The notes: generated from the letters alone by a model not told the origin. A stretch of DNA of 64,000 nt from Gemmatimonadaceae bacterium (GCA_051859245.1 JBHYGA010000006.1:64001-128000), one strand, 5' to 3'; positions 1 through 42,324 are shown, counted from the stretch's first letter. Translations and numbers: made by a program.

Positions 1-1092
1 GAAGCCGGTCATCATGAGTAGCAGCGTTGGCACGAGCGTCATGAGTCCCATCATCAACACGACACCAACGGTACCGTTCAAGCGCAGTCCGCCATCTGGA
101 CCGTTTCCGACACGCAGGTCGAGCTGGGGCGCCAGACCTGAAACAGCGTCAGCCACCGAGGCCGGCTGCGTCGGATCGGGCTCGGCGACAGTCGCGTCGG
201 CCGGCCGCGCCGAGTTGCTGGTCGCGGCATTTGCGGCGGGCGCTCCTGCGGTCTGGGTTCCTGCGGTAGCCGCGGCGGCGTTCGTGGCATTGGCCGGCCG
301 TGCGGCACCGGCCGCTGGTCGCGTGTTGCCAACCGGTGCGACGGTTGGCGCTGCGGGTGTGTTCGGTGCGGGCGGAGTTGGGCGAACGACCGGCGGCTGA
401 ACCGTGGGTACCGGTGCTCCGCCTGCGGCTGGTGGCGCCTGCGCTCCGGCTCCGAACGGCGACGTGAACTGCGAAAGCACCGCAAACGCCGCGATCGACA
501 GCAGACGAGTGGACGGTGCGAGCGTCATGGACAGCACGCTGTGCAGATCGCGGTGTGCTGAGCGCGGGGCTGCCGCTACAACAGTCGGCGTTTGCACCAC
601 GGGCTGCGGCGACGTGACCACGTGTTGGCCGAGCGATGCGTTCGTGGCTTGCGAGAGGGCGCGATCAAATGAAGGTGCTGCAGCGGCGACGTTGGCATTC
701 GCGCCACGCCGCGCGACCAAGGCGCGCTGCAGCGGTGCGGTAAACGCATTCGTCAATGACTTGGTGAACGCGGCGTGTGCGGTGGCGCTTGACACCATTG
801 GCATTGGCAACTCGCTGCCGGCCACAATGCGCTGACGGTCGGCTTCGTCAACTTCAAACAGTGTGTGTACGCCACCATCGCCAACGGAGACGGCGAGCAC
901 TTTCTCACCAACACGCACTACGGCCAGTCCCGACTTGGGGCCAAGTGGCAGTCGTTGCACGATCTCCACTTGCAAGCGCGAACGTCCTGACAGCGCACCA
1001 CCACCCACGCGCTTCAGCGCCCACACCGTCAGTGCGATGAGACCAAGTACAAACACCAGTGCTGCGAGAATTCCGATGCCAGCCGAAAGCAT
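1..1092 (-). CDS. fliOP: FliO-FliP fusion protein (3' partial, runs off the window edge)
   Basis: Absent from the ORF track because it has no stop in the window. Read by hand from ATG at 1092 to base 1 with no in-frame stop. N-terminus MLSAGIGILAALVFVLGLIALTVWALKR...LQVEIVQRLPLGPKSGLAVVRVGEKVLAVSVG is FliO-like. The end, TVGVVLMMGLMTLVPTLLLMMTGF, matches the conserved start of the FliP core. Follows fliN. Confidence 0.88.
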   Translation of the reverse strand, partial: MLSAGIGILAALVFVLGLIALTVWALKRVGGGALSGRSRLQVEIVQRLPLGPKSGLAVVRVGEKVLAVSVGDGGVHTLFEVDEADRQRIVAGSELPMPMVSSATAHAAFTKSLTNAFTAPLQRALVARRGANANVAAAAPSFDRALSQATNASLGQHVVTSPQPVVQTPTVVAAAPRSAHRDLHSVLSMTLAPSTRLLSIAAFAVLSQFTSPFGAGAQAPPAAGGAPVPTVQPPVVRPTPPAPNTPAAPTVAPVGNTRPAAGAARPANATNAAAATAGTQTAGAPAANAATSNSARPADATVAEPDPTQPASVADAVSGLAPQLDLRVGNGPDGGLRLNGTVGVVLMMGLMTLVPTLLLMMTGF

Positions 1093-3360: not shown

Positions 3361-4140
3361 TTAGAACTTCTTGCTGGCGCCGCGGAGCCAGTAGATCACG
3401 AGCTCGCAGGGCTGCTGCCCGGATACGAGCACGTAGCTGCGAAAGCGGGCTGGCACCTTGATAAACTCGTCGTAGTACTCGATCGCGACCACGTCGTTGG
3501 GTCGCCAGTTCATATCTGGTGGGAATGAGCCGGGCTCCGCCAGCATCGGCGGTTGCCCATTCCAGAGTTCAACGAGGCAGCGACTGGGTCGGGCCATAAT
3601 GCGCCACTCGCGTCCCATGGGGCCGAGTACCATGTTGCGCCGCAGCCCGGGCATGCCCTCGAACATGTCGGCCCACTGATCTGATCGCAGGGAACGCAGG
3701 GTACCGGCGTCGCGGAAATAGCCGAGCCCTGCCTGTCGGCGACATTCGAAGCCTTCGAGCGTCGTGGTGGCGCAGCGATCGGCGTCGGCCATGGCACGAA
3801 CGGTGTCGAGCGTGTTCGAGAACTGGGTCATGACCAGCACCAACCCTTCAGCCATTCCGGGCCTGTAGTTGAAGGACGCACTGAAACTGATATAGCCGAC
3901 TTTGCGGACGCGAATCTCGTACGTGCCGGCTTTCCCCAGCGGAAGTACAAATCGGCCGTCCTGATCAGTGCGGGCGCGGATCGGCGTGTTGGCGATGCTG
4001 ACATCAGCATCAGGTAGCGGTCGACCGAGGGTGTCCACGACGGAGCCGCGGATGGGCTGCGCGTGCGAGATCGCCGGCATGAGAAACGCCAGCATCACGG
4101 CGACAATCGCCAGCGCGGAAACGTTCGACGTGAGACGCAT
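3361..4140 (-). CDS. Secreted protein with carboxypeptidase-regulatory-like domain
   Basis: Signal peptide (SHA|Q) followed by IRGSVVDTLGRPLPDADVSI...TDQDGRFVL...GTYEIRVRKVGY. Confidence 0.75.
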   Translation of the reverse strand: MRLTSNVSALAIVAVMLAFLMPAISHAQPIRGSVVDTLGRPLPDADVSIANTPIRARTDQDGRFVLPLGKAGTYEIRVRKVGYISFSASFNYRPGMAEGLVLVMTQFSNTLDTVRAMADADRCATTTLEGFECRRQAGLGYFRDAGTLRSLRSDQWADMFEGMPGLRRNMVLGPMGREWRIMARPSRCLVELWNGQPPMLAEPGSFPPDMNWRPNDVVAIEYYDEFIKVPARFRSYVLVSGQQPCELVIYWLRGASKKF

Positions 4141-4303
4141 CACAACCGAGTACTCAGATCAGCGGTCGTTGATCCATGCGGCCTCGCGGGCAACCGGTTC
4201 AGCCCGCCGTACGCACTCTCGGTCAGCCGCACTCAACTCCCCATGCCACCGGGAGTGTCGCACGAGCAGCCCACAGGTTCGCCCCCCGCACACAGCCGCT
4301 TCC

Positions 4304-5731
4304 GTGTTTACTCCGCTTCTGCTCGCCGCCGCGCTGGTCGTTGACGCCGACTGCTCGTTGACCCTCTCTCGGCTCGCGACGAAAGTCGTGGCCAACTACG
4401 CTGGCTATCACCTCGAGGTGGTGGGCGCACGTCGTGTTGCGTACGACTCGATGCTTCGCGCACTTCAACCGCGCGCGGCGTCCGCCGCGGTCGACCAATG
4501 CCTTCCGGTGCTACGCAGCTACATCGCCTGGTTCAACGATCCGCACCTCGCGATCATCGAATCCACGAACATTGACAGCGCGGAAACACGACGACGCTCG
4601 GGCAGCATCAGAACAATCGCGTTGACTGAAGCCGAGGTGCTTCGTGGCCTGAGGGCACGCAGCACGATCGATCCAATTGAAGGCATCTGGTATGATGGGT
4701 CGATGCGTCTGGCAATTGTACCGGACCCAGACGCGGCACGCGGCACGTTCGCCGCGGTGGTTGTGGCGAGCGACACGATCACGTTGCCAATTGGTGCTGT
4801 GCGCGGGACCTTCACACGCCAACCTGATTCGACCTACGCGTGGACGCTCCACACGCGCAAGCTGGCGCGTCAATCGGGAACCGCCACGATTCACCGACGA
4901 AGCATGCTGCGGTTATCGCCAGGCATGTGGGGAAAGACCGCGCCGCTCGCGCCAGCCGATACGGGATGGCTTGATCCTGCTGATGTGCACCGTGCGACGC
5001 TTCGTGCGTGGGACGATGTTGTCGTCATCTCGATTCCCTCGCATGACTATGCGTTCAAGGCGCACTTTGACAGCCTGCTCACCGCGAATCGCAGCACGCT
5101 GGCTTCCGCGCGACGTCTGATCGTCGATCTCCGTGGCAACGAGGGCGGTGGATCGCAAATGATTGCGCGACTTCATCCATACCTCGTGGGCGATTCACTA
5201 CGCCGCGACGGATTTGATCAAACGGAGGCCGTGATGTGGTCATCTCCGGATCAGATTGCGTATGCACGCCGTGCATTCGGTGCAGATACGAGCGCGTTCG
5301 TCAGGCGCCTCGTGGCGGCACTGGAAGCGGCTCCCGGCACGCTGGTCCCGATGTACGATTCGTCGGTGCCAGCTCCCATGCCGCGCCCGATCATTCCGAT
5401 TTACGGGCCACGTCGAGTTGGCGTACTGATTGACGGCGGCACCGTCAGCGCGTCGGAAGTGACGGTGCAACTCGCGAAGCGCAGCGGACGTGCGATTGTG
5501 TACGGCGAACGCACGGCCGGTGCACTCGACTATCAGAGCACATCATTCACGCGCTTGTCACCGGACGAAAATCGGTGGCTGCTGTTGTATCCCACGATCA
5601 CTGCGTCAGCCAAACTGCCGGCTGGTGGAATGCGCGGCGTTGGAATTGCGCCTGACGTCAGCGTTCGTTGGTCCATGATTGGCGATCCAATCGCGCACAT
5701 CGCGGAACTGCTGCGCGCGAAGAACGAGTGA
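4304..5731 (+). CDS. S41 family peptidase, probably secreted
   Basis: LIVDLRGNEGGG, TVSASE (catalytic Ser), YGERTAG and GIAPD motifs. Start uncertain; placed at GTG 4304 before a hydrophobic segment (ORF open from 3968). Confidence 0.85.
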   Translation: MFTPLLLAAALVVDADCSLTLSRLATKVVANYAGYHLEVVGARRVAYDSMLRALQPRAASAAVDQCLPVLRSYIAWFNDPHLAIIESTNIDSAETRRRSGSIRTIALTEAEVLRGLRARSTIDPIEGIWYDGSMRLAIVPDPDAARGTFAAVVVASDTITLPIGAVRGTFTRQPDSTYAWTLHTRKLARQSGTATIHRRSMLRLSPGMWGKTAPLAPADTGWLDPADVHRATLRAWDDVVVISIPSHDYAFKAHFDSLLTANRSTLASARRLIVDLRGNEGGGSQMIARLHPYLVGDSLRRDGFDQTEAVMWSSPDQIAYARRAFGADTSAFVRRLVAALEAAPGTLVPMYDSSVPAPMPRPIIPIYGPRRVGVLIDGGTVSASEVTVQLAKRSGRAIVYGERTAGALDYQSTSFTRLSPDENRWLLLYPTITASAKLPAGGMRGVGIAPDVSVRWSMIGDPIAHIAELLRAKNE

Positions 5732-5831: not shown

Positions 5832-7352
5832 TTACCGCTTCACGTTCATCAGTTCCTGCAGCATTTCATCCGACGTCGACACGACCTTGCCGTTCGCCTG
5901 GAAGCCGCGCTGCGCGACGATCATGCTCGTGAACTCCTGCGCGAGGTCAACGTTCGACATTTCGAGTGCACCGGCCGTCATCTGCGACTGTGAGCCCTCG
6001 AGTGCGAAGCCGAGCACCGCGCTGCCGGAGTTGGCCGACTCCTGATACATGTTGTCACCAACGCGGAGCAAACCAGCCGGGTTGTTGAAGTCGGCGAGCA
6101 CGATCTTGCCCAACGGTGACGTGGTGCCGTTGGTGAAGAAGCCGGTGATCAAGCCGAAGCGGTCGATCGAGAAGTTCTGCAGCGAGCCGGCCGTGTAACC
6201 GTCCTGATCGCGCAGTACGGCCGTTGATGCCGTTGACGCGAACTGCGTGAGACCGTTCACGCCACCAGCAAGCTTGATATCAACCTGCACCGGATTCGCA
6301 CCAGGCACGGCGAAATCAATCGCGGCTGTGATATTCGTAGTCATGACACCAGTCGGGTCGAACGTGAGTGTTCCACCGTTCACGCCCGGGTCCGCCGCGG
6401 TTGGGCTCATGAAGTACGACACTTCAATCGCGGAGTCGGACGGCATGTTGGCCGTGAACGACACACCCGGCGGCGGGCCAGCCGTGAACGACCAGGCAGC
6501 GGGCGATTCGTAGTTCGCGCCGGTCGGGCTCGTGACACGCACATTCTCTGGCAGGATTTCATAGCCAGCGGGCGGCGTTGGCAACTCGATCGCCGTGGGC
6601 GGCGAGTTGGAATCCGTCTCAAATGTCTGACGCGATGCACTCGTAGCTGGATCGAGCTGCCACGACCATTCGTTCGCGCCCGTCTTCCACATCTGAATCT
6701 TCACGTCGTGCTTGGTGCCTTGCGAATCGTACACGGCAATCTGCGTTTCCGTCCACGCCTTTTCATTGGACGGCAGCGCGCGATCCGCCGGATCAAGGAA
6801 GTCGCCCTGAAAGATCGGCGACGACGCATTGAGGTTACCGGCAAGCGTGACTTCGCTCGTGGGACGCGCAGACACTTTCTGTCCGAACGGCAAACGGATG
6901 TCCTGAATACCGTCCTGCAGCAATCCGTTTTCGTACATGCGACCCTGCACCACGAAACCGTTGGTTGGCGACACGAGCTGTCCGAGCGCGTCTACCTGAA
7001 AGTTTCCTGAACGCGTGTAGAAGCTCTGGTTGCCTTTACGCACAACGAACAGTGAGTCACCCTGAATCGCGATGTCGGTGCCAAGACCGGTCGTTTCAAT
7101 GTTGCCCTGATTGAAGATCTGATCGATGGAGCCGATCTGCATACCAAGTCCGATCTGAATCGGATTGATACCACCCTGATCTCCAGGCGGACGGCTCGCG
7201 CCCTGCAGCAGCTGAGCGAAACCTTCTTTGAACGTGACACGGCCTGCCTTAAATGCGACGGTGTTGACGTTTGCGATGTTGTTACCGATGACGTCCATGC
7301 GAACCTGATGATTGCGCAGGCCCGATACACCGGCGAAGAGAGAACGCAGCAT
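5832..7352 (-). CDS. flgE: Flagellar hook protein FlgE
   Basis: MLRSLFAGVSGL...GNNIANVNTVAFK; YTRSGNF; LEMSNVDLAQEFTSMIVAQRGFQAN. Confidence 0.97.
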   Translation of the reverse strand: MLRSLFAGVSGLRNHQVRMDVIGNNIANVNTVAFKAGRVTFKEGFAQLLQGASRPPGDQGGINPIQIGLGMQIGSIDQIFNQGNIETTGLGTDIAIQGDSLFVVRKGNQSFYTRSGNFQVDALGQLVSPTNGFVVQGRMYENGLLQDGIQDIRLPFGQKVSARPTSEVTLAGNLNASSPIFQGDFLDPADRALPSNEKAWTETQIAVYDSQGTKHDVKIQMWKTGANEWSWQLDPATSASRQTFETDSNSPPTAIELPTPPAGYEILPENVRVTSPTGANYESPAAWSFTAGPPPGVSFTANMPSDSAIEVSYFMSPTAADPGVNGGTLTFDPTGVMTTNITAAIDFAVPGANPVQVDIKLAGGVNGLTQFASTASTAVLRDQDGYTAGSLQNFSIDRFGLITGFFTNGTTSPLGKIVLADFNNPAGLLRVGDNMYQESANSGSAVLGFALEGSQSQMTAGALEMSNVDLAQEFTSMIVAQRGFQANGKVVSTSDEMLQELMNVKR

Positions 7353-7388: not shown

Positions 7389-8192
7389 TTAGCTGCGGAT
7401 CTGAAGCAGTGATGAGAACGGAACGCTCATGCGATCGCCGAGCAGCAATGTGGGAACGCCTTGTTCGTAGCGCAGTCCGGTAATACGTCCGCTGGTGTAC
7501 GTCTTGGCGGGGAGCCAGTTGGCCTGAGCGTCCGCCATGTCAAATCGATACGAATACTGACCAGGCTCGAGCGGCGGCGTGATGCCGAAGTCTTCGAGTT
7601 GAAACGACTGCATGCCTTTGCTGACATCGCCGATCACGTAGCTGCCGATTGCTTCACCTTTTGCGTCAACAACCGTGAGACGACCAATGCCTTCCTTCTC
7701 GCCAGTGTCCACGGTGATGGAGCCTTCACCATCGCGATCGACAAACACCTGATCACCCGCGACCACACCAGTGCGCCCGACCGTGTTAATCGCCATGGAC
7801 TGCTCAAGCAGTTTGGCCATTGCATCGCCCTGCGCGATCGTGATTTCACTGAGATCTTCAATCGCGTTGCCCAGCTCGACCTGGCTCTCGGCCACAACCT
7901 TCATGTTCGAGTTGATATCAATGAGCTGCTCAACCTGCGAGAACTGCGCGAGCTGTGCGGCCATTTCCTGGCCGTCCATCGGGTTGAGTGGATCCTGATT
8001 CTTCATCTGCGCCACGAGCAGCTGCAAAAACTCATTGCGGCCAAGCGCGTCGTTTTTCTTGCCAGTACCGGCCTCTTTCGGCGGCGTGGCCTCGGCCGGC
8101 GCCTGCACCGGCGCGTTCGGATCTGCCGCTGTGTTGTTAAAGCGCGGTGCAATCGCGGTTGGCGTGCTGATCGCGCGCGTGATGTCAAACAT
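7389..8192 (-). CDS. flgD: Flagellar hook capping protein FlgD
   Basis: FLQLLVAQMKNQDPLNPMD...AQLAQFSQVEQ. Confidence 0.96.
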   Translation of the reverse strand: MFDITRAISTPTAIAPRFNNTAADPNAPVQAPAEATPPKEAGTGKKNDALGRNEFLQLLVAQMKNQDPLNPMDGQEMAAQLAQFSQVEQLIDINSNMKVVAESQVELGNAIEDLSEITIAQGDAMAKLLEQSMAINTVGRTGVVAGDQVFVDRDGEGSITVDTGEKEGIGRLTVVDAKGEAIGSYVIGDVSKGMQSFQLEDFGITPPLEPGQYSYRFDMADAQANWLPAKTYTSGRITGLRYEQGVPTLLLGDRMSVPFSSLLQIRS

Positions 8193-10282
8193 CAGTGATT
8201 CTCCTGCCGGTTGTTGCGCCGGCCCTGCTGGTGATTGCTCTCCTGCTCGTCGCGCGCATCGCGGCCCGGCTGCTGCTTGGCCGCTGGACGATCCTTCGTG
8301 CCCGAGTCGTGCGTGTGCTGCTGGCCCATCTGCTGTCCGTGCGACGCACCCGCGGTCTTGAGCACTTCTGAACGGTCAGCCATTGCCTGACGCATGGCGT
8401 CTCCTTCGCTGCTGCGTGCAGTCTGCTGGACGCGCAGCGGTTCTGTTTCCAGGCCGTGTCGGCCGAGTGCGTCTTGCAGGTCAGCCGTTTGCATGCGCAA
8501 CCGATCGGCGAGCGCCGCATTGTTGGTGCTGATCTGCGCGCCAACCGCGCCACCGCGCAGGTTCACGCGAATCTCTTCAGCGCCCGTTGGCGTGTCGATC
8601 TTCATGGTCAGCGACGAAACCGACGGCGCCGGCGCGTCTTCACGCAATACAGCGATCGCTTCCGCACGTGCGGCGGCAGTACTGCCGGCCGGTGCCTGCA
8701 CACGCGGTGCGCCGGCGTCGAGTACACGATCAACGCTTGCGTTGAGCGCACCGATGGCACTACCCGCATCGGCTACACTTGCCGCGCGATCAAGTCCACG
8801 CGCGCGTTCGCCGCTATTGCCGCGCGACTCACGGTCTGATGCGCTGCTCGTGCCACCCTGACGGGCGCGCCCCTGCGATGCAATCTCCGAAATGCGCGCA
8901 CCAAATGTGGACGCGGTGTCAGACGGGCGTGCGTTGTCGAACAGCGGTACGTTCTCGGCGTCGGCGCGTAGCGATCCCGCGCGCACGCCATTCCCCGGTC
9001 GAGCTACCTGTGCGACTTGAGCTACCTGCGCCACGTGTGCCACACGCGCAACGGATGCGACCTGTGCGATGCCGCCCATATTGGCGACGCGTGTGCTCTG
9101 TTCACGAACGCCATCTCGCAGCGAGTCATCGCCATGCAAGCCGTTCGCTGATCCGCGCAACTCCAGATGTCCAGGATCGCGCATGCCGAGCGTCTTTACG
9201 CCTTCTTCCGCGGCAATCGCGTGCAGGCGCGCATACGCGACCGGATGATTCCACTTGCCATCAATGATGACGTCGGCGGCTTCACCTGACTCGTGCGCAC
9301 TGTTGGTTGTCCAGGTGACGATCGGTCCTGGAGCTGTGCGCCCCTGCGCATACAGATGTTCCTGACGCTCCCCGGAACGCACGGTCTCGACCACCTGCAC
9401 ATCGTGTCCGAACTCGTCGCGCATGCGATCGACAATCCGGTCAAGGCGCGCACGGAACTCCGGTGCCAGACCCTCAATATCACGAACCGGCGTTGCCACG
9501 TTCTCGGCTGATTTTGCGACGGCGTTGGCGAACTCTGGACGCGCGGTCTCCGCGATGACGCGGCCACGCGGCGTGCCGGCGACATCAAGCAAAGCGTCGA
9601 GCGCCGCACGGACATCGGCCGCGCGCTGATCATTGCGCGCCATCAACTCACCGCGTCCACGGCCAGCTGCCCGCTCAGCAAGGGCCAGCAGATCCGCGTT
9701 GGCCATTCCCGTATTGTTCAACTCGCCCTCGTTCTGTGCGCCAGCGAGGGCTGCGGCCAACTCGGCGGCGCGACCCTTGGCGAGTCCGTTCACACCGCGT
9801 GCTGACTCACGTTCTCCAATAGAGGCTGCGGACCGATTCTCGACATTGTTGGAAACCAGAATCGCCCGTGCGGCACGCATCGCGTCGGACTGCAGCGCTC
9901 GCGCCAGTGCGCGCTGATCCGCGTCGGGCATCGAGGACGGTGTCTCAGCTTCCGACGTTGGCTGCTCGGATTCGCTTTCGTTGTCTACGGTGAGGACCTG
10001 CACGTCCGCATCGCTCTCTTCAGCGTTCACGTCGAGCGAGAGCGTGTCTGGTGCGGCATTGGCCGGGGGCTTCGGCGCTGTTCCGCCGAGCAACGCGAGC
10101 AGCAGCGAGAAGTCAGGCGGTGTGTGTTCGCGGTCCGCCTTGTCCGTACGCGACGTTTCATCGGCGCCCTCATTGCGCGACGCTCGTTCAGCCGGTTGCG
10201 GCCGATCGGTGTGTCGGGCACGAATGACCGAGGGTCCGGCAGAAGTTGCCGAAACGTTTGATGTAAACGGCAACAAGCTCAC
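8192..10282 (-). CDS. fliK: Hook-length control protein FliK with an internal M15 family metallopeptidase domain
   Basis: Lies directly before flgD. Low-complexity N-terminus; C-terminal Flg_hook-like domain (LTMKIDTPTGAEEIRVNLRGGAVGAQI...LQDALGRHGL) and Gln-rich tail. Central RSGERQEHLYAQGRTAPG...SAHESGEAAD...DPGHLE is M15-like. Confidence 0.85.
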   Translation of the reverse strand: MSLLPFTSNVSATSAGPSVIRARHTDRPQPAERASRNEGADETSRTDKADREHTPPDFSLLLALLGGTAPKPPANAAPDTLSLDVNAEESDADVQVLTVDNESESEQPTSEAETPSSMPDADQRALARALQSDAMRAARAILVSNNVENRSAASIGERESARGVNGLAKGRAAELAAALAGAQNEGELNNTGMANADLLALAERAAGRGRGELMARNDQRAADVRAALDALLDVAGTPRGRVIAETARPEFANAVAKSAENVATPVRDIEGLAPEFRARLDRIVDRMRDEFGHDVQVVETVRSGERQEHLYAQGRTAPGPIVTWTTNSAHESGEAADVIIDGKWNHPVAYARLHAIAAEEGVKTLGMRDPGHLELRGSANGLHGDDSLRDGVREQSTRVANMGGIAQVASVARVAHVAQVAQVAQVARPGNGVRAGSLRADAENVPLFDNARPSDTASTFGARISEIASQGRARQGGTSSASDRESRGNSGERARGLDRAASVADAGSAIGALNASVDRVLDAGAPRVQAPAGSTAAARAEAIAVLREDAPAPSVSSLTMKIDTPTGAEEIRVNLRGGAVGAQISTNNAALADRLRMQTADLQDALGRHGLETEPLRVQQTARSSEGDAMRQAMADRSEVLKTAGASHGQQMGQQHTHDSGTKDRPAAKQQPGRDARDEQESNHQQGRRNNRQENH

Positions 10283-10902
10283 GGTGTGGTGCTCGCTGGT
10301 GTTGTGGTTGCGGCCTTCGTAAGCGAAGCCGCGCGGGACGCGGGGAGCGCGGTCAACACGGCCGCTGCCTGGCGATCTCCCATCATGGAAAGAATCGTGC
10401 GGATGTCTTTGTCCGACATTTGCTCCAATACCTTGGCTGCATCTTTGGATGACATCGCGCTGAAAATCTTGGCGAGTCGACGTTCCGGCAGCACTTCGGC
10501 CACGGGCACCGCGGGTGCAGTTGCAGCCGGTGTGCCCTTCGCAGACGCGGTGACTTCCGGTGTCAGTGTTGCAGCGGGCGCGAGAGGTGGTGACACCGAA
10601 GGCGTGACGCCGGCCGTCTGCTGATTTCGCTCTGACACGAGCGCACGAATCGAATCTGCTGGAGTACTGAGTGCGTTGAGTGCAGAGTCGGCGCTCGCAC
10701 TATCGGCCTGCGCTTGCAGCGCGGCCTCTGCGAGTGCGGCGCTATCGGCCATGATGCTATCCATCCGGACCTTCGCGATCGAATCCTGCACCACAACATG
10801 CGCCGCGTACGTCGTACGCGAATGCATGACGGAGTAGCCAGCACTTCCGGCCAATCCGACCACGATCGCGAGTATAGCGGGGAGAATAGCGGTCTTGAGC
10901 AT
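10279..10902 (-). CDS. MotE/FlbB/YlxF-like flagellar protein (MgtE N-terminal-like domain)
   Basis: N-terminal TM helix; RLAKIFSAMSSKDAAKVLEQMSD...ILSMMGDRQAAAVLTALP; between fliJ and fliK. Confidence 0.8.
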   Translation of the reverse strand: MLKTAILPAILAIVVGLAGSAGYSVMHSRTTYAAHVVVQDSIAKVRMDSIMADSAALAEAALQAQADSASADSALNALSTPADSIRALVSERNQQTAGVTPSVSPPLAPAATLTPEVTASAKGTPAATAPAVPVAEVLPERRLAKIFSAMSSKDAAKVLEQMSDKDIRTILSMMGDRQAAAVLTALPASRAASLTKAATTTPASTTP

Positions 10903-10913
10903 CAGGATGCGAC

Positions 10914-11450
10914 TCAGATGACCGGCGAAGCCGGCGGTGTAAGTGAGCGGTCGATGGCGAGCGGTTCGGACGAATCAGCGGGGGCATTCATGTCAGTGCT
11001 TCTACGCATGGATCGTGCCTGCGTGAATCGCGAGAGCGCGATTTCATCCATGTGCATTCGGTCGCGCTGTTGCTCGGCGTCAAACCAGCGTTCGGAATGC
11101 CGCTCCTTCAGGCGTCCGATCACGCGCCGATCCCGCGACGCGAGATGCAAGGCGGCTTGTGCTTCCGCAACCACGCGCTCGGCTTCCTGTACGTCATCCG
11201 AGGCACGGGCGAGGCGGTCATCGAGCTGGCCGATAATGAACGACAAATGATGCAGTTCTCCGGCCGTGATGACACCGCGTGCCGCGGCCTGCAACGTTTC
11301 ACGCTGCAGCTCACGAAGCGAGTGCATGGCCGCCTGCTGCCGCTTGCATTCGTTGGCCTGATCCGTTGCAGACGCGAGCGTGCGTGCACGGGCTTGCTCG
11401 GATTCTTCACGCAACTCAAGCACACGCTGCAATCGAAAGCGAAAACTCAT
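10914..11450 (-). CDS. fliJ: Flagellar export protein FliJ
   Basis: MSFRFRLQRVLELRE start, coiled coil, EQQRDRMHMDEIA; follows fliI. Confidence 0.92.
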   Translation of the reverse strand: MSFRFRLQRVLELREESEQARARTLASATDQANECKRQQAAMHSLRELQRETLQAAARGVITAGELHHLSFIIGQLDDRLARASDDVQEAERVVAEAQAALHLASRDRRVIGRLKERHSERWFDAEQQRDRMHMDEIALSRFTQARSMRRSTDMNAPADSSEPLAIDRSLTPPASPVI

Positions 11451-19450: not shown

Positions 19451-21250
19451 ATGTGTATCCGCTGGCCGTGCCGTAGTGCGTTGTTGGCCAGCGGTTACCT
19501 GCTGCTTGCCGCCTGCAGCGGGAGCGACGCGGTTGATCCCGGCGCAGCGCCGAGCGCCGTCGTTGTTACGCCGGCCGCTCAAAACATCTCGTCGCTTGGT
19601 GTCACCGCGCGATTGAGCGCGGAAGTGCGTAGCGTCAACGGTGCGGTGCTTTCCAGCCGCGCGATTACGTGGACGCGGAAAGGCAGCGGCGCAACGGCGG
19701 TGAGTGACAGTGGCGTCGTGACCGTTCTCGCGAACGGTGTAGACACCATCACGGCAACGAGCGGATCGCTTACGGGCACGGCGGTCATCACCGTGAATCA
19801 AGTGGCCGCGAGCATCACGCTCACGCCGGCGCCATCGAACATTTCGGTGCTCGGCGCGTCGCAACAGTTGAGCGCGAGCGTGGTCGACGCGAACGGGCGT
19901 TTTCTCCCGTTGGCGGTGGCAACGTGGACTTCTTCCAACAGCGCGAGTTTGCCGATCACCGCTGATGGCGTAGTAACGGCTGCTCGGCCCGGCGCGAGCG
20001 TGATCACGGCCACGTTTGCTGGCGTGTCGGCGACGCGCGACATGACCGCAACGCTGACGTCACCGGTGGGCGGCCCCATCCTTGGTGCAACCGTGCCGTG
20101 CGCTGGTGGCATGGCTGGCCCGTTCCCCTGCGAGAATGTGGATCTGCTCGCGTTCCTGCCGGTGTCTGGCATGGGCGGCGGTCCAGGCGTGGACCTGAAT
20201 GATCTGTGGGGATGGACGGACGAGACGAGCGGCAAAGAGTACGTGATCGTCATGCGTCGTGATGGCACCGCGTTCGTAGACGTGAGTGATCCGCGCAATC
20301 CGATTTTTCTGGGGAGCCTGCCGATCACACCCGGTGCGACGCCGAACATATGGCATGACGTGAAGGTGTATCAGGGATATGCGTTCATTGTGGCGGACGC
20401 GGCCGGACCACATGGCATGCAGGTGTTCGATTTGCGCCGGCTTCGTGAACACGCGGGTTTCCCGCGCACATTCACCCCGGATGCGACGTATACGAACATC
20501 AACAGCGCGCACAACATCGCGATCAATGAGGCGACCGGCTTCGCGTATATCGTAGGCGCAAGCGGCGGTGGTCAAACGTGCGGCGGCGGCTTGCACATGG
20601 TCGACATTCGCTCACCAGGTGCGCCAGTGTTTGCGGGTTGCTTCGCGGATCCGATGACGGGCCGAGTGTCAACCGGCTACACGCACGACGTGCAATGTGT
20701 ACGCTATCAGGGACCGGACACGCGATACACCGGTCGCGAAATCTGCCTCGGCAGCAATGAAACACACTTGAGCGTTGCCGACGTGACGGAAAAGCAGACG
20801 CCCGTAGCCATCAGCCGCGCGAGTTATCCGCAGGTTGGTTACACGCATCAGGGGTGGTTCACACAGGATCAGCGATACTTTCTCGTGAATGACGAGACAG
20901 ACGAGACACGTTTTGGTCTGCGAACGCGAACGCTGATCTGGGACGTGGCCGATCTCGAAGATCCCGTGCTGGTAGGCGAGTATCTGGGACCGAACCCGGC
21001 GTCCGATCACAACCACTACATTCGTGATTCGCGCATGTATGCGTCCACGTACCAGTTTGGGCTTCGTGTCATCGATGTGAGCAACCCGAAAGCGCCATCG
21101 CAGATTGGCTACTTTGATACGGCGCCGAACTTTCCCAACACGCCGGGCTTTGGCGGGTCGTGGAGCAACTATCCGTACTTCAAGAGCGGCATCATTGTGA
21201 TGACCAGCCGCACCGAAGGTTTCTTCGTGTTGCGCCTGCGGCCGAACTAA
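19451..21250 (+). CDS. Lipoprotein with two Ig-like (Big_2) domains and a choice-of-anchor B/LVIVD propeller
   Basis: Lipobox LAAC; two Ig-like repeats; C..GMAGPFPCENVDL, NDLWGWTD, WHDVKVY, AHNI, YTHD, YTHQGW, GSWSNYPYFKSG. Confidence 0.85.
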   Translation: MCIRWPCRSALLASGYLLLAACSGSDAVDPGAAPSAVVVTPAAQNISSLGVTARLSAEVRSVNGAVLSSRAITWTRKGSGATAVSDSGVVTVLANGVDTITATSGSLTGTAVITVNQVAASITLTPAPSNISVLGASQQLSASVVDANGRFLPLAVATWTSSNSASLPITADGVVTAARPGASVITATFAGVSATRDMTATLTSPVGGPILGATVPCAGGMAGPFPCENVDLLAFLPVSGMGGGPGVDLNDLWGWTDETSGKEYVIVMRRDGTAFVDVSDPRNPIFLGSLPITPGATPNIWHDVKVYQGYAFIVADAAGPHGMQVFDLRRLREHAGFPRTFTPDATYTNINSAHNIAINEATGFAYIVGASGGGQTCGGGLHMVDIRSPGAPVFAGCFADPMTGRVSTGYTHDVQCVRYQGPDTRYTGREICLGSNETHLSVADVTEKQTPVAISRASYPQVGYTHQGWFTQDQRYFLVNDETDETRFGLRTRTLIWDVADLEDPVLVGEYLGPNPASDHNHYIRDSRMYASTYQFGLRVIDVSNPKAPSQIGYFDTAPNFPNTPGFGGSWSNYPYFKSGIIVMTSRTEGFFVLRLRPN

Positions 21251-22779
21251 GCACGCGCTACGCGCAGCACTTCGTCGAGCGTGGTCACCCCCGCACGCAC
21301 CAAACGCAGGGCATCGTCGCGCAGCGTGCGCATGCCGTTCCCAATCGCGATCGCGCGCAGTTCTTCCGACCCGCGACGGGCCTGTGTCTCAAGGCGCAGC
21401 TCGTTGTCCATCACGAGCAGTTCGTATACGCCCTGACGCCCGCGGTATCCGGTATCCCGACAGTACTCACAACCGGTTCCTTTCCACACGGTCTCGAGTC
21501 CCAGTGCGGCGAGATCAAACGAACGCGCGGCTCGTGCGTCTGGTGTGGTGGGTGTCTTGCACTTGGGGCAAATCACGCGCACCAGTCGCTGCGCCAGCAC
21601 CGCGTCTACAGTGCTGGCCACGAGGTACGAGGCAACACCGAGATCCAGCAAACGCGTGAGTGCCGTGGGCGCATCGTTGGTGTGCAGCGTGGACAGGACA
21701 AGATGGCCGGTGAGCGCAGCTTGCGTGGCAATCTGCGCTGTTTCTGCGTCGCGAATTTCGCCCACCAGAATGATGTCCGGGTCCTGCCGCAGCAGTGAGC
21801 GCAGCGCTGCGGCAAAGGTCACGCCCACTTTTTCATTAACGGGTACCTGCGGCACGCCGGGCAATTCGTACTCAACCGGATCTTCAACCGTGAGAATTTT
21901 CTCACGACCGGTGCGCAGCAGCTCAATGGCGCCGTACAACGTAGTGGTTTTTCCGGAGCCGGTTGGGCCGGTCACGAGTACGATGCCGTGCGGACGCGAG
22001 ATACTTTCCCGAAACAGTTCGAGTGTATCGTCGGCCATGCCCATGTCAGTGAGCGAGATGCGACCGCGCTCCTTGTCGAGCAGTCGCAGCACCACACTCT
22101 CACCGCGCAGCGTGGGCGCCGTTGAGACACGCACGTCTACCTGACGATTCTGCAAGCGCAGCCGAATGCGTCCGTCCTGTGGCATACGGCGCTCCGCAAT
22201 ATCCAGCTCGGCCATGATCTTGAGGCGGCTGACAATCGCTGCCGTGAGATGCGGCGGGGGCGACGGTGCGGGCTGGAGCACACCGTCAACGCGGTAGCGA
22301 ACATGCAAACCGTCGGCGTAGCCCTCAAGATGAACATCGGACGCACGCGCGTCGAGCGCTTCAATGATCAGCAGGTTCACGAGACGCACCACTGGCGCTT
22401 CGTTCGCCAGATGCAGCAAATCATCCAACGGAATTTCATCAATACCCAGCGCGCGACTCTCGGACGACATGCCGGCGATCATGCCTTCTGCTGTTGTCGC
22501 ATCCTGCGCGTAGACGCGACGAATCGTGCTGCGAACGTCGTGCTCCGTGAATCGCACCAGTGCCACGGACGCGTTGAACTGCAGGCGCAGCTCGTCTAAT
22601 GCGAGCGGTTGCACACGATCGAGCCACGTGGCAACCGTGAGTTCGCCGGCGTGCAGCTTGAGCGGCAACACCGCGTGCTGCTCAAGCCAGTCTGCCGACA
22701 ACACACCGGACATCCGCTCGACTTCGAGCAGCTCACTCGCCGAGTGTTCCGCCGGGCCCGCGCCGTTGACTGCGGTCAT
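21247..22779 (-). CDS. gspE: Type II secretion ATPase GspE
   Basis: ASDVH, LDIAERRMPQDGR, GPTGSGKTTT, EDPVE, LRQDPD, TGHLVLSTLHTND, CxxC-CxxC. Confidence 0.96.
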   Translation of the reverse strand: MTAVNGAGPAEHSASELLEVERMSGVLSADWLEQHAVLPLKLHAGELTVATWLDRVQPLALDELRLQFNASVALVRFTEHDVRSTIRRVYAQDATTAEGMIAGMSSESRALGIDEIPLDDLLHLANEAPVVRLVNLLIIEALDARASDVHLEGYADGLHVRYRVDGVLQPAPSPPPHLTAAIVSRLKIMAELDIAERRMPQDGRIRLRLQNRQVDVRVSTAPTLRGESVVLRLLDKERGRISLTDMGMADDTLELFRESISRPHGIVLVTGPTGSGKTTTLYGAIELLRTGREKILTVEDPVEYELPGVPQVPVNEKVGVTFAAALRSLLRQDPDIILVGEIRDAETAQIATQAALTGHLVLSTLHTNDAPTALTRLLDLGVASYLVASTVDAVLAQRLVRVICPKCKTPTTPDARAARSFDLAALGLETVWKGTGCEYCRDTGYRGRQGVYELLVMDNELRLETQARRGSEELRAIAIGNGMRTLRDDALRLVRAGVTTLDEVLRVARA

Positions 22780-24488
22780 CAGAACTGCGGCTCACGCAGG
22801 AAGAACTCCGGCAACACCGGTGGGCGACGACCGACCGTGGAGTCCGGGATACCTACATTGATTGTGTCGCCGCCAATGCGAACGCGGCCCTCAATGCGCA
22901 GGTCCTTCAGAAGATCGCTGCTGTTTCGCACCGATTCGCGAAGCCGATCAATATCTTCGTCGCTTGAGACAATATGCGGAGTGAGGAAGAGAAAGAGCTC
23001 CGTGGTGCGATTGCTGCGCGACGTATTGCCAAACAGCCAGCCGATCAACGGAAGTCGGCTCAGGAATGGAATGCCAGAGGTGGATTCGTCCGATGTGTTG
23101 TCGGAAAGCCCACCGATCACCGTAGTCTGGCCGTCACGCACAAATACCGACGTTTGCGCTTCGCGCTCATTGATGATCGGGGCATCGAACAGCAAGTTGT
23201 TGCTCACGTCGTTATTGGTTTGCACCACTTCCATGTTCACATACCCATCGGTGTTGATCGTGGGAGTGATGGTGAGCGTTTTACCAACCGGCAAATACTG
23301 AATGGTTTGCACACGCGAGTTAGGATCAATGCCACCCGCCTGCGTGACCTGAACAAACGGTACGCTCGAGCCAACGTTGAGCACCGCTTGTTTGTTGTTT
23401 TGCGCAATGATGATCGGTAACGCCAGCACCTTCACGTCACCACGCGTTTGCAGTGCGTTGATTGCCAGATCGTAGTTCACCGAGCCGCGTCCGCCGGTGA
23501 GTAAGTACACAAAGTCGCGCGCGGTGCCAGCGCCCGGCAGGCGAGCCGCCGTGTCACCACTTGTACGCGTTGCGGTACCCGAGACACCCAGGCCAAGATC
23601 ACTACTGCGCTCAACCTGCGCGATGGTGACTTCGATGAGCACCTGCAGCGGGCGCAGATCCACGGACTGCACCAGCGATTGCAGCGCCTGAAAATCTTCT
23701 GCGGTAGAGCGAACAATCAGTGAATTGGTAGTTTCGTCTGCGACAATGCGAATATCGGAGAATGCCAGACCGTTGTTGCTCGATCCGTTCTGCAGTCCAA
23801 ACGCAGCGGCCATTGCTTCCCGAATCGCAACCTGCGGATTGTTCGGATTATTGTTTCCTCCACCTCCCTGCTGCGCGTTCCCACCAATAATCCCTACAAC
23901 GCCAGCACCACCACGTCCGCCTTGCTGAATGCCCTGAATCCCCTGGATGCCACCGGGCGCGGTGACATTACGCGTCGCCCCCCCCACGTTGCCTGAGCCC
24001 GTGAGCAAGTTCATGAGCATCGGCGCAACGGTGGTTGCGGTGGAGTGCTTGAGTCGCACGGTGTACAGATTCAGCACGCGATTCTGCTGTGCCTGCTGCG
24101 CCATCTGCTGCGGCGTGAGACGAGGCGGCGGTGCAACACGCGGCGGGCCAACCAGGCGAATCACCGACGTCCCTTCTGTGACCGTGATTTCGCTCCCCTC
24201 GGCCACGGCCTTGATCGCCTCGATCGCGGCTTCTCGATTCATCTGCTGCGCCATACGCAGCGACACTTTCGCGGCCGGCATGTTGCTGAGCGTAATGTTC
24301 AGTCCACCCGCTTCAGCAATGGCACGAAGGACAACCGCAACGTCCTGCTCGACAAAGTCGAGCACCAGACCATCGGGGCTGTTGCGCAGCGCGGCCGAGT
24401 CACGTCGCGGCGGCGCGCCACCGCGCTGCGAAAGCAGCGGCGACGCGCAGACGGCCAACAACAGGGTGACGTGGAAAAACGATCTCAT
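22779..24488 (-). CDS. gspD: Type II secretion secretin GspD
   Basis: Signal peptide; IVADETTNSLIV, QVLIEVTI, TVIGGL, GIPFLSRLPLIGWLF, ELFLFLTPHIV. Confidence 0.94.
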   Translation of the reverse strand: MRSFFHVTLLLAVCASPLLSQRGGAPPRRDSAALRNSPDGLVLDFVEQDVAVVLRAIAEAGGLNITLSNMPAAKVSLRMAQQMNREAAIEAIKAVAEGSEITVTEGTSVIRLVGPPRVAPPPRLTPQQMAQQAQQNRVLNLYTVRLKHSTATTVAPMLMNLLTGSGNVGGATRNVTAPGGIQGIQGIQQGGRGGAGVVGIIGGNAQQGGGGNNNPNNPQVAIREAMAAAFGLQNGSSNNGLAFSDIRIVADETTNSLIVRSTAEDFQALQSLVQSVDLRPLQVLIEVTIAQVERSSDLGLGVSGTATRTSGDTAARLPGAGTARDFVYLLTGGRGSVNYDLAINALQTRGDVKVLALPIIIAQNNKQAVLNVGSSVPFVQVTQAGGIDPNSRVQTIQYLPVGKTLTITPTINTDGYVNMEVVQTNNDVSNNLLFDAPIINEREAQTSVFVRDGQTTVIGGLSDNTSDESTSGIPFLSRLPLIGWLFGNTSRSNRTTELFLFLTPHIVSSDEDIDRLRESVRNSSDLLKDLRIEGRVRIGGDTINVGIPDSTVGRRPPVLPEFFLREPQF

Positions 24489-24503
24489 AGTTCGGTACCG
24501 CGT

Positions 24504-25007
24504 TTAAGTGGGGTTCGCATTGATTGCGAACCGCTCGCCGGACACAGTGGAGAACTCCACCACGCCGCGCTTGATCGACCGCACGGTGAAATCACCAACC
24601 TGGTCTCCCACACGCACGATCACGGTGGGTGCGCCGTTGAGCGAGCACATGGCGAAGGTTCGATTGCCCGTGCCAACAACGGTGCCCAGCACGAGCAGTT
24701 GTGACACGTCAACTGGCTCTGCTTCAACGTAGGTGTCCTCATTGCCAGGCAGTCGATATCTGGTCACGGGCGGGCTACGATCCGGCGAGAACAGATTGTC
24801 TTCGACCACCGCACTCACATTGAGTGCCTGCGCGGTTTGCCTGGCGGCCAACGCTGCGGCCGTATTGAACTGCGGTGGTGCGGCGTCGGGTACAGGCTCG
24901 ATGCGCAGTGCCACCACGAACGACCAGACCGCGAATGACGCGGCCAGAATCAGCGCGCCAATCGCTGCCTGCACGCGCTGCTGCTTCAATACATCGCGGC
25001 TCATCAT
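24504..25007 (-). CDS. GspC-like type II secretion component
   Basis: N-terminal TM, NLFSPDRSPP, LLVLGTV...VRVGDQVGDFTVRSI (HR-domain-like); just before gspD. Confidence 0.65.
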   Translation of the reverse strand: MMSRDVLKQQRVQAAIGALILAASFAVWSFVVALRIEPVPDAAPPQFNTAAALAARQTAQALNVSAVVEDNLFSPDRSPPVTRYRLPGNEDTYVEAEPVDVSQLLVLGTVVGTGNRTFAMCSLNGAPTVIVRVGDQVGDFTVRSIKRGVVEFSTVSGERFAINANPT

Positions 25008-25612
25008 TGCGCGCCTCCCGCAGGGCGAGGCGCGTCTTCAGGAATCGCGTACCCAACAATCGACGCCGAGATTGAAACGGGTTCGATGCCGTCTTCCGTG
25101 ACCGGACCCTGGGTGACCGACACATCCAGTCGCTCGATGCGCACCAGCTTGTCGCCGCGCTCCAGGGCCTGCAGAAAGTTGAGCAGTCCCTGCAAGTCTG
25201 ACTCGGCACGCAGCGCCACGTGCAGCGTTCGCACGCCCGCCTCGCCAACGGTTGCGGGACGCGTCGTTGCGTTCTGCAACCAGACATCATGCTCGCGAGC
25301 CACAGCGCCGAGGTGCGAGACCAACTCGGCCGTGGCCATGACATCATCACGTCCGGCAAAGAGCCGCGGCGACATCGCTCGCATGAGTGAGTCGGCGAGC
25401 GCCTGCATGCCGGGGTTGCGTTGCGCGGCCGTGACGGCCGCACGTTCACGTGCCAGTGCGGCGCGTTCAACGCTCAGAAAGTCGCGCGACTCTTCCAGCG
25501 ACGAGCGAAACGGCTTCACGCCCCAGATGAAAAACAGCGCGGGTGCCAGAATCAACGCGCCGAGCGTGAGCGCGCGTTTGTCGCGCGCTGACATGGCCGT
25601 GAGCCGACTCAT
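25004..25612 (-). CDS. gspM: Type II secretion protein GspM (T2SSM_b/PilO-like)
   Basis: MSARDKRAL plus TM helix, coiled coil, LLNFLQALERGDKLVRIERLDV. Confidence 0.8.
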   Translation of the reverse strand: MSRLTAMSARDKRALTLGALILAPALFFIWGVKPFRSSLEESRDFLSVERAALARERAAVTAAQRNPGMQALADSLMRAMSPRLFAGRDDVMATAELVSHLGAVAREHDVWLQNATTRPATVGEAGVRTLHVALRAESDLQGLLNFLQALERGDKLVRIERLDVSVTQGPVTEDGIEPVSISASIVGYAIPEDAPRPAGGAQ

Positions 25613-27030: not shown

Positions 27031-27977
27031 CGGATCTGCGCCGTGTTGTTGTTTCCGCGCTGAATCAATGCGATCAGGCGAGCAGGTTGTGCGGTGAGCG
27101 TGTCGTGCACAAAGATGGTGAGTTGCACATCGCGTGTATCGACCGTGGCGCGTTGACTGAGCTGTTGTTCGGCGCGCGATGTCTGACCGCCGCCGCCGGC
27201 TTGGCCTTGAGCGGACAGAACAGATGCAATCGATGTAATGCGGCGACCGCCAGAGCGCATGGCGAGAATGTTGGCGATGGTCACATCCGTCATGCCAGGC
27301 AATGCTCGCAGGACTGCCTCGGGCGCCGTGTTCAGGTTGACGCGTGTTGCCGTGCCGTAGGTGGTGAGATATGGCTTGACGGCCGCGAGGATTTCGTCGG
27401 TGATACCGGGAACATGAATCAGATCGTCGACTTCGCGAAACGGACCATTGGTTGGCAACACCAGTCGGTCGTCACGCATATACTGCTCGCGTTCCGCGCC
27501 GGCGATGCGCGGTAAGTCGTCTACGTCAATCCAGTCCATGATCGACTGCGCGATGCCGTCCGCTGCCTGATAGTCGCGCAGTACAAATCCAAACAGCTGC
27601 TTGAGTTCTGTTTCGCTGAGGTTGTTCAGATTCAGTTGCGTGCCAAGGTCCGTGACGATCACATCAATGGGCACGTCGCCAACTTGCAGCGGACCGGAGT
27701 ACAATGAGTCGGCGTCGAGCCACGGGTCAGAAGCGCGCAGTGCGGCAGCGCTGCCGCGGGCATTCAGCGTGCGCAGGTCATTCTCGAGTCGCGCCATCAT
27801 GGTGGCCAGCGCACCGGTGGTTGCGGCACGATCGCGGGCGCGATCACGCGCGGCGAGGCCGAGCACGTGTCGTTCGCGCGCGGTGAGTGAGAACTGCAGC
27901 GCAACGCTGGCAATCATGACCACGAGCCACATGGCCGCCAGCATTGCGAATCCGCGTCGTGGGCGACGAGTCGTCAT
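27015..27977 (-). CDS. gspK: Minor pseudopilin GspK
   Basis: RRG|FAMLAAMW with no Glu5; LNLN, IMDWIDVD, NGPFREVDDLIHVPGI, VNLNTAP. Confidence 0.93.
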   Translation of the reverse strand: MTTRRPRRGFAMLAAMWLVVMIASVALQFSLTARERHVLGLAARDRARDRAATTGALATMMARLENDLRTLNARGSAAALRASDPWLDADSLYSGPLQVGDVPIDVIVTDLGTQLNLNNLSETELKQLFGFVLRDYQAADGIAQSIMDWIDVDDLPRIAGAEREQYMRDDRLVLPTNGPFREVDDLIHVPGITDEILAAVKPYLTTYGTATRVNLNTAPEAVLRALPGMTDVTIANILAMRSGGRRITSIASVLSAQGQAGGGGQTSRAEQQLSQRATVDTRDVQLTIFVHDTLTAQPARLIALIQRGNNNTAQIRWQQW

Positions 27978-30960: not shown

Positions 30961-30984
30961 GCGTGTGTGGCCGGATGGAAACGT

Positions 30985-31425: not shown

Positions 31426-31724
31426 GGGAGGGAGCTGCGAGGGGAGGGAGAAGCCGTGTCTTTGGACACGCGCCGCGACACCACGGTTTGCGCTCATCGA
31501 CCGTAACGGGAGACGCCTGTGTATCGTCAACGTTAGCGCGTTTCGTGGGCCACGACTACGGGCGCGTATGGCAGGGTTCGGCAGGGCCATCCGTGTAATA
31601 GCTGTGACTCGATCGCCCGTGGCGTTCCGGCCGGAGGGTGCGCATACTCCAGTCACTGCTGGTCATCTCAATCCCGCCGTGAGCCCATGCCAGCGCGCCC
31701 CGTGTCTCCGTTCTCCCAGAGGAA

Positions 31725-42284: not shown

Positions 42285-42324
42285 ACGCTGGCGCGTGATC
42301 CTGTTTCCCGGTTCTCAGTCGCCG

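Follow-up and report, generated by a model that had tools for sequence, protein, structure and literature searches.

How machines that span the cell envelope cross peptidoglycan without lysing the cell is still debated, and lineages differ in how the wall is hydrolyzed for the flagellum (PMC13584718, PMC8517470): beta- and gammaproteobacteria are described as having a dual-domain FlgJ, while other lineages have a single-domain FlgJ and a separate lytic enzyme (PMC8517470). A 64,000-nucleotide stretch of DNA from a Gemmatimonadaceae bacterium (GCA_051859245.1, JBHYGA010000006.1:64001-128000; hereafter the window) raises the question of whether a flagellum can carry a wall-cutting enzyme on its own hook-length ruler. 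On the minus strand at 8192..10282, exactly where a first-pass annotation of this DNA had placed it, an open reading frame (ORF) in the position of fliK starts with GTG and encodes a protein of 696 residues, P0001. The annotation had proposed that this protein is a FliK ruler with an embedded M15 peptidoglycan peptidase domain. On balance, we lean towards the reading that P0001 is a Gemmatimonadota FliK with an internal, intact M15/LAS peptidase of L-Ala-D-Glu type, which would be exported and would open peptidoglycan for the rod and hook.

The M15/LAS zinc-peptidase domain, recognized by sequence, profile, and fold matches, spans residues 267-378 of P0001 (9149..9484, minus strand, as are all parts of the gene given below), and its peptide runs from LAPEFRARL via SAHESGEAAD to DPGHLE. 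The first-pass annotation had located this peptide at 9152 to 9484; the motifs are there and the end agrees, but the domain starts at 9149. All elements expected of the active site are present in P0001. The zinc triad consists of an H-x6-D pair and a distal histidine, so that all three ligands claimed by the annotation are accounted for (H330, codon 9293-9295; D337, 9272-9274; H372, 9167-9169), the D-x-x-H motif supplies a putative general base in D369 (9176-9178), and the conserved arginine of M15 domains corresponds to R302. The correspondence between these motifs and the ORF is far above chance.

When the domain alone was compared with PDB sequences using phmmer, it matched the endolysins Ply500 (2vo9, E=1.5e-3) and LysB4 (6akv, E=1.8e-3). 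A profile of 120 homologues, the best of 141 clusters found at E<=1e-3 among 8000 candidates scored in a whole-protein search, matched the same two proteins at E=3.1e-11 and E=2.3e-10, respectively, and endolysin families of PHROGs matched the domain at 7e-15, 2e-13, and 2e-11. H330 and D337 align with two Ply500 residues that match, at a constant offset of 12, what we take to be its zinc ligands, His80 and Asp87. Among 61 homologues scanned with Pfam (the query plus every odd-numbered sequence of the 120 aligned), M15 models were found at E<=0.01 in a minority, with VanY in 10, M15_3 in 7, and M15_2 in 5. Membership in M15 rests on the profile-to-PDB match, the PHROGs endolysin families, and the fold.

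The fold itself was predicted with confidence, as the first-pass annotation had suggested should be checked. An AlphaFold model of the domain, made from a 55-row alignment, had a mean predicted local distance difference test score (pLDDT) of 87.1, with blocks of 94-98 over the LAS fold. When this model was compared with the PDB using Foldseek, Ply500 was again the best match (2vo9, E=2.6e-7, template modeling (TM) score 0.61), followed by LysB4 (6akv, 2.2e-6), LysECD7 (8q2g, 1.9e-5), and ChiX (5opz, 8.9e-5), all four of which are L-Ala-D-Glu endopeptidases by entry name. VanXY, LdcB, VanX, and Hedgehog-N came next, which together make up the LAS fold group. In BFVD, 33 matches were obtained at E<=1e-3, mostly M15B peptidases and endolysins, and several of them were virion-type proteins of 600-1285 residues with an internal M15 domain.

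Taken together, these matches support the presence in P0001 of an embedded LAS/M15 domain of the L-Ala-D-Glu endopeptidase (Ply500/CwlK) type, and the type named by the first-pass annotation agrees with both the profile match to Ply500 and the four best fold matches in the PDB. Since M15 specificity is not safely read from sequence, the bond that the domain would cut is assigned by analogy with its closest structural relatives. Ply500, LysB4, LysECD7, CwlK, and ChiX are M15 L-Ala-D-Glu endopeptidases whose SxHxxGxAxD and DxxH motifs align with those of P0001; unlike P0001, they act as endolysins or autolysins or, in one case, in connection with secretion, and they have export routes or wall-binding domains of their own.

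We assessed active-site conservation in 258 sequences, comprising the query, its relatives, new representatives from a domain-only search, and short forms. R302 was kept in all 258, H330 in 257, D337 in 255 (one valine and two gaps), and D369 and H372 in 254 each (four gaps each). Conservation of the zinc ligands in homologues, which had been set beforehand as a test, therefore held in 254-257 of the 258 sequences. Q307, R315, and S328 were likewise kept in at least 254, and the invariant columns of the alignment concentrate in the peptidase, where they include R302, R306, Q307, R315, S328, H330, G333, D337, D369, H372, and E374. Mean identity to the query was 64% in the M15 domain, 59% in a VAx repeat that follows it, 48% in the C-terminal domain, 42% in the region of an FxxxPhi motif near the N-terminus, and 10-27% in all other regions, linkers included. 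Relative to the closest genome locus (L001, 87% identical), the ratio of nonsynonymous to synonymous substitution rates (dN/dS) was 0.005 for the M15 segment, 0.043 for the C-terminal domain, and 0.119 for the N-terminal part, although these ratios are rough because dS is near saturation. By these comparisons, the M15 domain is the most constrained part of P0001 and is predicted to be catalytically intact.

These same data bear on the idea that the folded zinc domain is mainly mechanical, serving as a bulky head or a ratchet against back-sliding, or binding peptidoglycan without cutting it, with catalysis secondary or lost. Such a domain would set which part of the chain measures length, and the linker between it and the C-terminal T3S4-type domain is long and disordered in the model (median 155 residues, range 118-300). 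In addition, the Hedgehog N-terminal domain, which is among our fold matches, is a LAS fold that keeps its zinc site without an accepted protease role. However, the conservation in P0001 and its relatives extends beyond the zinc ligands to R302, Q307, R315, S328, and D369, each kept in at least 254 of 258 sequences, and together with the dN/dS of 0.005 it exceeds what fold stability usually demands. We therefore regard a mainly mechanical role as quite improbable.

We also examined how widely the peptidase and the ruler are joined. The domain-only search against 1.84 billion cluster representatives returned 1715 matches at E<=1e-3, 533 at E<=1e-10, and 318 at E<=1e-30, and nearly all of the best 150 had the domain inside a protein of 400-1000 residues. 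Using hidden Markov models (HMMs) of the M15 and C-terminal domains built from columns of the family alignment, we found both domains, always in that order, in all 120 homologues and in 107 of 125 new representatives (227 of 245 in total); the other 18, in which we found M15 alone, are mostly short proteins, perhaps fragments. A scan of 185,579 species genomes matched at least 599 stretches, 446 of which encode a relative, and the best 80 of these 446 were taken as loci. Both HMMs fell within a single stop-to-stop ORF in 78 of the 80 loci, while the other two were cut by a contig end. An artefact, whether a peptidase gene and fliK merged by sequencing or assembly error or a chance occurrence of the motifs, is ruled out to near certainty by the single ORF in 78 of 80 independent loci, and also by the presence of both domains in 120 of 120 homologous protein clusters drawn from several data sources.

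By their titles, 78 of the 80 loci belong to Gemmatimonadota (Gemmatimonas, Gemmatimonadaceae, Gemmatimonadales, Longimicrobium), and the remaining two are a metagenome-assembled genome (MAG) labelled Candidatus Kuenenia and a locus labelled only "bacterium". The former, a Candidatus Kuenenia stuttgartiensis MAG (L023, CALQGY020000005.1), has a full Gemmatimonadota-type fliG to fliM block with an M15-FliK gene of 35% identity; mis-binning of this contig is the probable explanation, rather than a flagellar operon in a planctomycete. In the most divergent clade that we met, proteins of ~500 residues around P0114, there were 149 relatives, of which the named ones are "Gemmatimonadaceae bacterium" or "bacterium", and Gemmatimonadota was the commonest phylum among the ESM Atlas clusters. 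These sequence surveys support the view that the fusion is a lineage-wide feature of Gemmatimonadota. Short, stand-alone forms of the domain numbered 13. Eight of these are close relatives that lie mostly on short contigs and are probably fragments; the other five are distant (E 2e-7 to 1e-3), and four of them carry PF13539 (M15_4). Since the nearest stand-alone relatives score only E>=2e-7, the FliK-borne domain forms a separate clade.

The carrier of this domain is a very divergent FliK, as we take it to be from a curated profile, the fold, and the position of the gene. The first-pass annotation had described a FliK-like C-terminus, and this description was borne out by Pfam, which places a Flg_hook domain (PF02120, the T3S4-type C-terminal domain of FliK) at residues 551-622 (8417..8632, E=1.8e-7). 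Its score of 31.3 bits exceeds the gathering cut-off of 29.8, and it is the sole Pfam family in the whole protein; Flg_hook was also found at E<=0.01 in 52 of the 61 homologues scanned. AlphaFold models residues 536-620 as a helix, three strands, a helix, and a strand, with block pLDDT of 79-93. When the whole 696-residue model was compared with the PDB using Foldseek, the only match listed outside the M15/Hedgehog fold was a weak one to 5cuk (E=0.043, TM 0.52 normalized by target, 84 columns), which is the substrate-specificity-switch domain of the injectisome ruler PscP, and no FliK chain was among the matches listed. In the ESM Atlas, 27 of 30 feature matches for residues 530-640 fall in the Flg_hook set.

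Other searches did not connect P0001 to FliK. Escherichia coli K-12 FliK (L081) gave no significant match to the 120-sequence family profile (hhalign probability 0.3, E=0.2), and residues 520-696 had no phmmer match among PDB sequences, the best being ribosomal uS9 at E=0.6. FliK diverges fast, and the failed alignment with the E. coli protein seems mainly to reflect distance. With respect to a separate fliK, which the first-pass annotation had raised as a possibility, none of the 80 loci showed a second Flg_hook-type ORF on the strand of the fusion gene within 10 kb, and Table S1 of a preprint (PMC13277936) lists a single FliK for Gemmatimonas aurantiaca (WP_012681815.1), with an accession adjacent to its "MotE" and FlgE entries.

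Like FliK of the Salmonella and E. coli type, P0001 is encoded after fliJ and before flgD and flgE, lacks a signal peptide, and has a disordered N-terminal part, a folded C-terminal domain that is probably of T3S4 type, and a disordered tail. It differs in being ~1.7 times as long as E. coli FliK (696 vs. 375 residues) and in containing a folded enzyme domain and a helical module within what is normally an unstructured ruler and linker. The resulting layout, consisting of a disordered N-terminus, the helical module, the M15 domain, a disordered linker, the T3S4/Flg_hook domain, and a disordered tail, is the same in all 120 homologues.

The fliK position claimed for this gene is evident from its neighbors. 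Operon order in the window is a flgB-like ORF, flgC, fliE, fliF, fliG, fliH, fliI, fliJ, a gene with an MgtE_N domain, the P0001 ORF, flgD, and flgE. Upstream of P0001 are fliJ (10914..11450, minus strand, Pfam FliJ E=1.9e-12) and, in the position of FlbB/YlxF/"MotE", the MgtE_N gene (10279..10902, minus strand, E=9.4e-9), whose stop codon overlaps the P0001 start (GTGA). The P0001 stop in turn overlaps the start of flgD (TGATG), and this hook cap gene (7389..8192, minus strand, Pfam FlgD E=8e-24) is translationally coupled downstream of P0001 and followed by the hook gene flgE (5832..7352, minus strand, Pfam Flg_bbr_C, FlgE_D2, D1, and Flg_bb_rod). Across the 80 loci, flgD lies downstream of the fusion gene in 74 and the MgtE_N gene upstream of it in 72, with contig ends cutting off the other 6 and 8, respectively. 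We take the gene order around fliK to be that of the Bacillus subtilis fla/che operon.

P0001 has features that would suit the flagellar export apparatus. The maximum 19-residue Kyte-Doolittle mean in P0001 is 1.13, and the protein therefore has no membrane segment or signal-peptide core. A short helix at residues 58-65 contains F58-S-L-L-L62 (10097..10111, minus strand), which resembles the FxxxPhi export-gate recognition motif. Of the 120 homologues, 110 have F and 2 have Y at position 58, with a gap in 8, while position 62 is L, M, or F in 113. In Salmonella, the gate-recognition motif is reported to dock rod and hook subunits (FlgD, FlgE, and other early subunits) at FlhB (PMC8983047), and the FlgD encoded in the window has a similar EFLQLL. 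By analogy, F58-S-L-L-L62 may function in export gate recognition. Because P0001 lacks a signal peptide, the flagellar type III channel is the likely export route, and we infer that it is the only plausible way for the M15 domain to reach peptidoglycan. Delivery by this route is suggested by the lack of a signal peptide or membrane segment, the conserved FxxxPhi motif, and the precedents of FlgJ and TagX.

Of these precedents, dual-domain FlgJ, in which a rod cap is joined to a GH73 glucosaminidase, is a rod/hook-class export substrate reported to carry its own hydrolase into the periplasm (PMC8517470, PMC13584718). It differs from P0001 in its carrier, a rod cap rather than a ruler, and in its chemistry, since a glycosidase cuts glycan whereas a metallopeptidase would cut the stem peptide. 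TagX of the Acinetobacter type VI secretion system is described as a Ply500-like (pfam13539) L,D-endopeptidase that cuts between L-Ala and D-Glu and is required for transit of the system through the producer's own peptidoglycan (PMC5061870). It shares with P0001 a Ply500-like M15 domain and its metal and active-site residues; unlike P0001, TagX is a stand-alone protein anchored in the membrane by two transmembrane segments, is not a secreted substrate or ruler, and serves another machine (PMC5061870). In lineages with a single-domain FlgJ, SltF, PleA, and BB0259 are reported to open the wall for flagella (PMC8517470), but these are separate, Sec-exported, glycan-cleaving proteins that are recruited by binding FlgJ.

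Wall opening for the rod or hook is, by analogy with these systems, our best reading of the P0001 peptidase. P0001, which has no Sec or Tat signal, would present N-terminal signals by which the export gate recognizes it as a substrate of the rod/hook class, and it would be threaded unfolded, N-terminus first, through the nascent rod. With the rod still below the peptidoglycan, the peptidase segment of ~112 residues would emerge at the tip, fold, and bind zinc in the periplasm, where it would cut stem peptides off glycan strands between L-Ala and D-Glu, if it behaves like its structural relatives. Removal of stem peptides would leave fewer local cross-links and a wider mesh for the rod and hook. 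At sufficient hook length, the C-terminal T3S4 domain would switch export specificity, as expected from its family membership. The enzyme would thus take the role of the glucosaminidase of dual-domain FlgJ, or of SltF or BB0259 alongside a single-domain FlgJ, while differing from these hydrolases in that it would cut peptides rather than glycans and ride on the ruler rather than the rod cap.

Several observations weigh against this reading. The curated Pfam M15 models stayed below threshold on P0001 (VanY, 11.8 bits against a cut-off of 25, E=0.22), and NCBIfam matched no family to the whole protein, while its match to the domain was weak and irrelevant. Therefore, a Pfam scan alone would miss the M15 domain, and the HMM search proposed by the first-pass annotation had a divided outcome, with Flg_hook above its cut-off and the M15 models below theirs. 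E374 was kept in 248 of the 258 sequences, but was replaced by Q in three and A in two (five gaps). Our genome scan was baited with peptidase motifs and returns only M15-bearing loci, and for this reason the fraction of flagellated Gemmatimonadota that have the fusion is not readable from it. Once the hook has grown out of the cell, most FliK would be released where there is no self-wall to cut. Furthermore, the glucosaminidase activity of FlgJ is reported to enhance flagellum assembly in Salmonella without being required for it, and B. subtilis rods are reported to penetrate the wall without dedicated hydrolysis (PMC13584718). Finally, Table S1 of PMC13277936 lists a FlgJ for G. aurantiaca (WP_012681791.1, accession adjacent to FlgI), and the lineage may thus already have a flagellar hydrolase, which the P0001 enzyme may complement rather than replace.

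The status of FlgJ also bears on the first-pass annotation, which had pointed out that the window contains no flgJ. We found no Rod-binding (PF10135) or Glucosaminidase (GH73) Pfam domain in P0001 or in the window ORFs scanned, and by this measure P0001 is not an FlgJ and is only proposed to do a similar job. Although the statement therefore holds for the ORFs scanned, it is uninformative, since the flgF-G-A-H-I-J block lies outside the window and a FlgJ is listed for G. aurantiaca. Thus, the interpretation given in the annotation is supported in part: the FliK identity, the domain type, and the zinc site stood, export and wall opening stay proposed roles, and the argument from a missing flgJ fell. 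In the same table, the SLT and Glucosaminidase cells are empty for G. aurantiaca, and the domain content of its FlgJ is not among the entries. However, Borrelia has an empty SLT cell despite its BB0259, and the E. coli row does not extend past the FlgJ column; for these reasons, empty cells in Table S1 are not evidence of absence.

Since FlgJ hydrolase activity is described as dispensable for penetration in Salmonella (PMC13584718) and a FlgJ homologue is listed for G. aurantiaca, we considered whether the exported, active peptidase instead remodels the wall at the basal body, for example for the P-ring, a periplasmic collar or disc, or stator anchoring, or trims stem peptides after the rod has passed. 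This alternative shares its evidence for activity and export route with wall opening. However, the sequence gives no hint of a particular alternative target, and a carrier exported only during rod and hook growth best fits a role at that stage. A remodeling role is accordingly unlikely in our estimation.

The reading that P0001 opens peptidoglycan for the rod and hook has a stricter form, in which a single chain couples breaching of the wall to length measurement. With ~250 residues between the N-terminus and the peptidase and ~155 between the peptidase and the T3S4 domain, the enzyme would emerge and fold at the rod tip while the C-terminal half is still threaded in the channel. The wall would then be cut only within a few nanometers of the rod tip and only while one ruler molecule passes through, and the cell could do without a dedicated recruitment factor or inhibitor. 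The folded head might also be the distal reference point of the ruler. We hold this stricter form to be doubtful, but worth stating for what it would imply. A parallel exists in phage tape-measure proteins, such as that of mycobacteriophage TM4, which resemble P0001 in determining length, traveling through a tube, and including a wall-degrading module (PMC1796659). This parallel is conceptual, as these proteins have no homology to P0001 outside the peptidase domain, and, unlike P0001, the viral tail ruler acts on a host wall from outside.

Because the closest sequence and fold relatives of the domain are phage endolysins that lyse cells, it is also conceivable that the peptidase is released with FliK and acts outside the cell, making a minor contribution to bacteriolysis or scavenging by attacking the walls of neighbors or free muropeptides. 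FliK is present in culture supernatants of model species, which would agree with this idea, but only small amounts of it are exported per flagellum. In addition, an extracellular role does not readily explain why the domain precedes the T3S4 domain at a fixed place in 227 of 245 relatives, with conserved order and linker, and no immunity-like gene is evident between fliJ and flgD. We consider such a role highly improbable.

We found no description of a FliK-M15 fusion in PMC open-access papers or bioRxiv. Automated annotation has already noticed the domain, with labels among our matches that include "M15 family metallopeptidase", "CwlK", "YcbK (DUF882)", "D-alanyl-D-alanine dipeptidase", and "FliK", and both the components and the general idea are known; it is the combination and the carrier that are new. 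Wall opening by P0001 would be a new solution in three respects, namely its carrier (a ruler), its chemistry (a peptidase), and a built-in limit on the place and time of cutting. The fusion also indicates that FliK, which is regarded as a non-catalytic tape, tolerates and keeps a folded enzyme in its measuring region, which bears on how length is measured. If the peptidase does act while tethered in the channel, Gemmatimonadota would control autolysis during flagellum insertion in a way that no secretion machine has been described to use, and FliK, as a ruler that bears an enzyme, would be the counterpart of phage tape-measure proteins. In practical terms, the M15-FliK gene offers a simple, testable marker for studying flagella in Gemmatimonadota, a phylum that is common in soil and freshwater but has received little attention.

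The remaining parts of P0001 were analyzed in a full-length AlphaFold model made from the 120-sequence alignment (mean pLDDT 61.6), in which residues 1-57, 67-117, 388-524, and 645-696 fall below a pLDDT of 50 and appear disordered. Directly N-terminal of the peptidase is the helical module (residues ~195-260, 9503..9700, minus strand, block pLDDT 70-93), with predicted helices at 195-207, 210-215, 219-234, 238-246, and 249-260. Given its place next to the M15 domain, it could be a lid, a regulator, or a wall-binding piece, and autoinhibition by this module is raised by the report that full-length TagX is inactive (PMC5061870). Just after the peptidase domain, residues 405-428 (8999..9070, minus strand) form an (I/V)-A-x triplet repeat of 8 units (IAQ VAS VAR VAH VAQ VAQ VAQ VAR), which AlphaFold models as a low-confidence coil. 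The repeat is kept at the protein level, with the consensus VAxVAxVA and near-invariant A and V columns, and no DNA tandem repeat was found at 8999..9070; since its codons vary, it is not a DNA slippage repeat.

Elsewhere in the operon, two inserted genes follow flgE, and then come fliL, fliM, fliN, and an ORF with a FliO domain. The inserted pair, which lies between flgE and fliL, consists of a CarboxypepD_reg-domain gene (3361-4143, minus strand) and a Peptidase_S41 gene (3968-5731, plus strand). Among the 80 related loci, only the closest (L001) has both; in the remaining loci, flgE runs to fliL with no match to either gene. The FliO-domain ORF (1-1092, minus strand) carries that domain at its N-terminus, encodes at least 364 residues, and runs to the window edge. 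Since one accession stands for both FliO and FliP of G. aurantiaca in Table S1 of PMC13277936, a FliO-FliP fusion is suggested in this lineage.

Outside the operon, within 42277-64000, a flgL-like gene and fliW (42277-43763) lie ~18 kb from genes for flagellin (61831-62586) and fliD (62669 onward). The intervening ~18 kb, with glycosyltransferases, two asparagine-synthase-like genes, a DegT-type aminotransferase, a nucleotidyl transferase, and an NDP-sugar dehydratase, are probably a flagellin glycosylation island. A gene at 35413-38427 (minus strand) encodes a 1004-residue protein that combines phosphotransferase (APH), Peptidase_M23, and class-III aminotransferase domains. Adjoining the flagellar operon at 21247-31656 (minus strand) is a complete-looking type II secretion cluster with an ATPase, a secretin, C/M/L-like, K, F, and G components, and pseudopilins.

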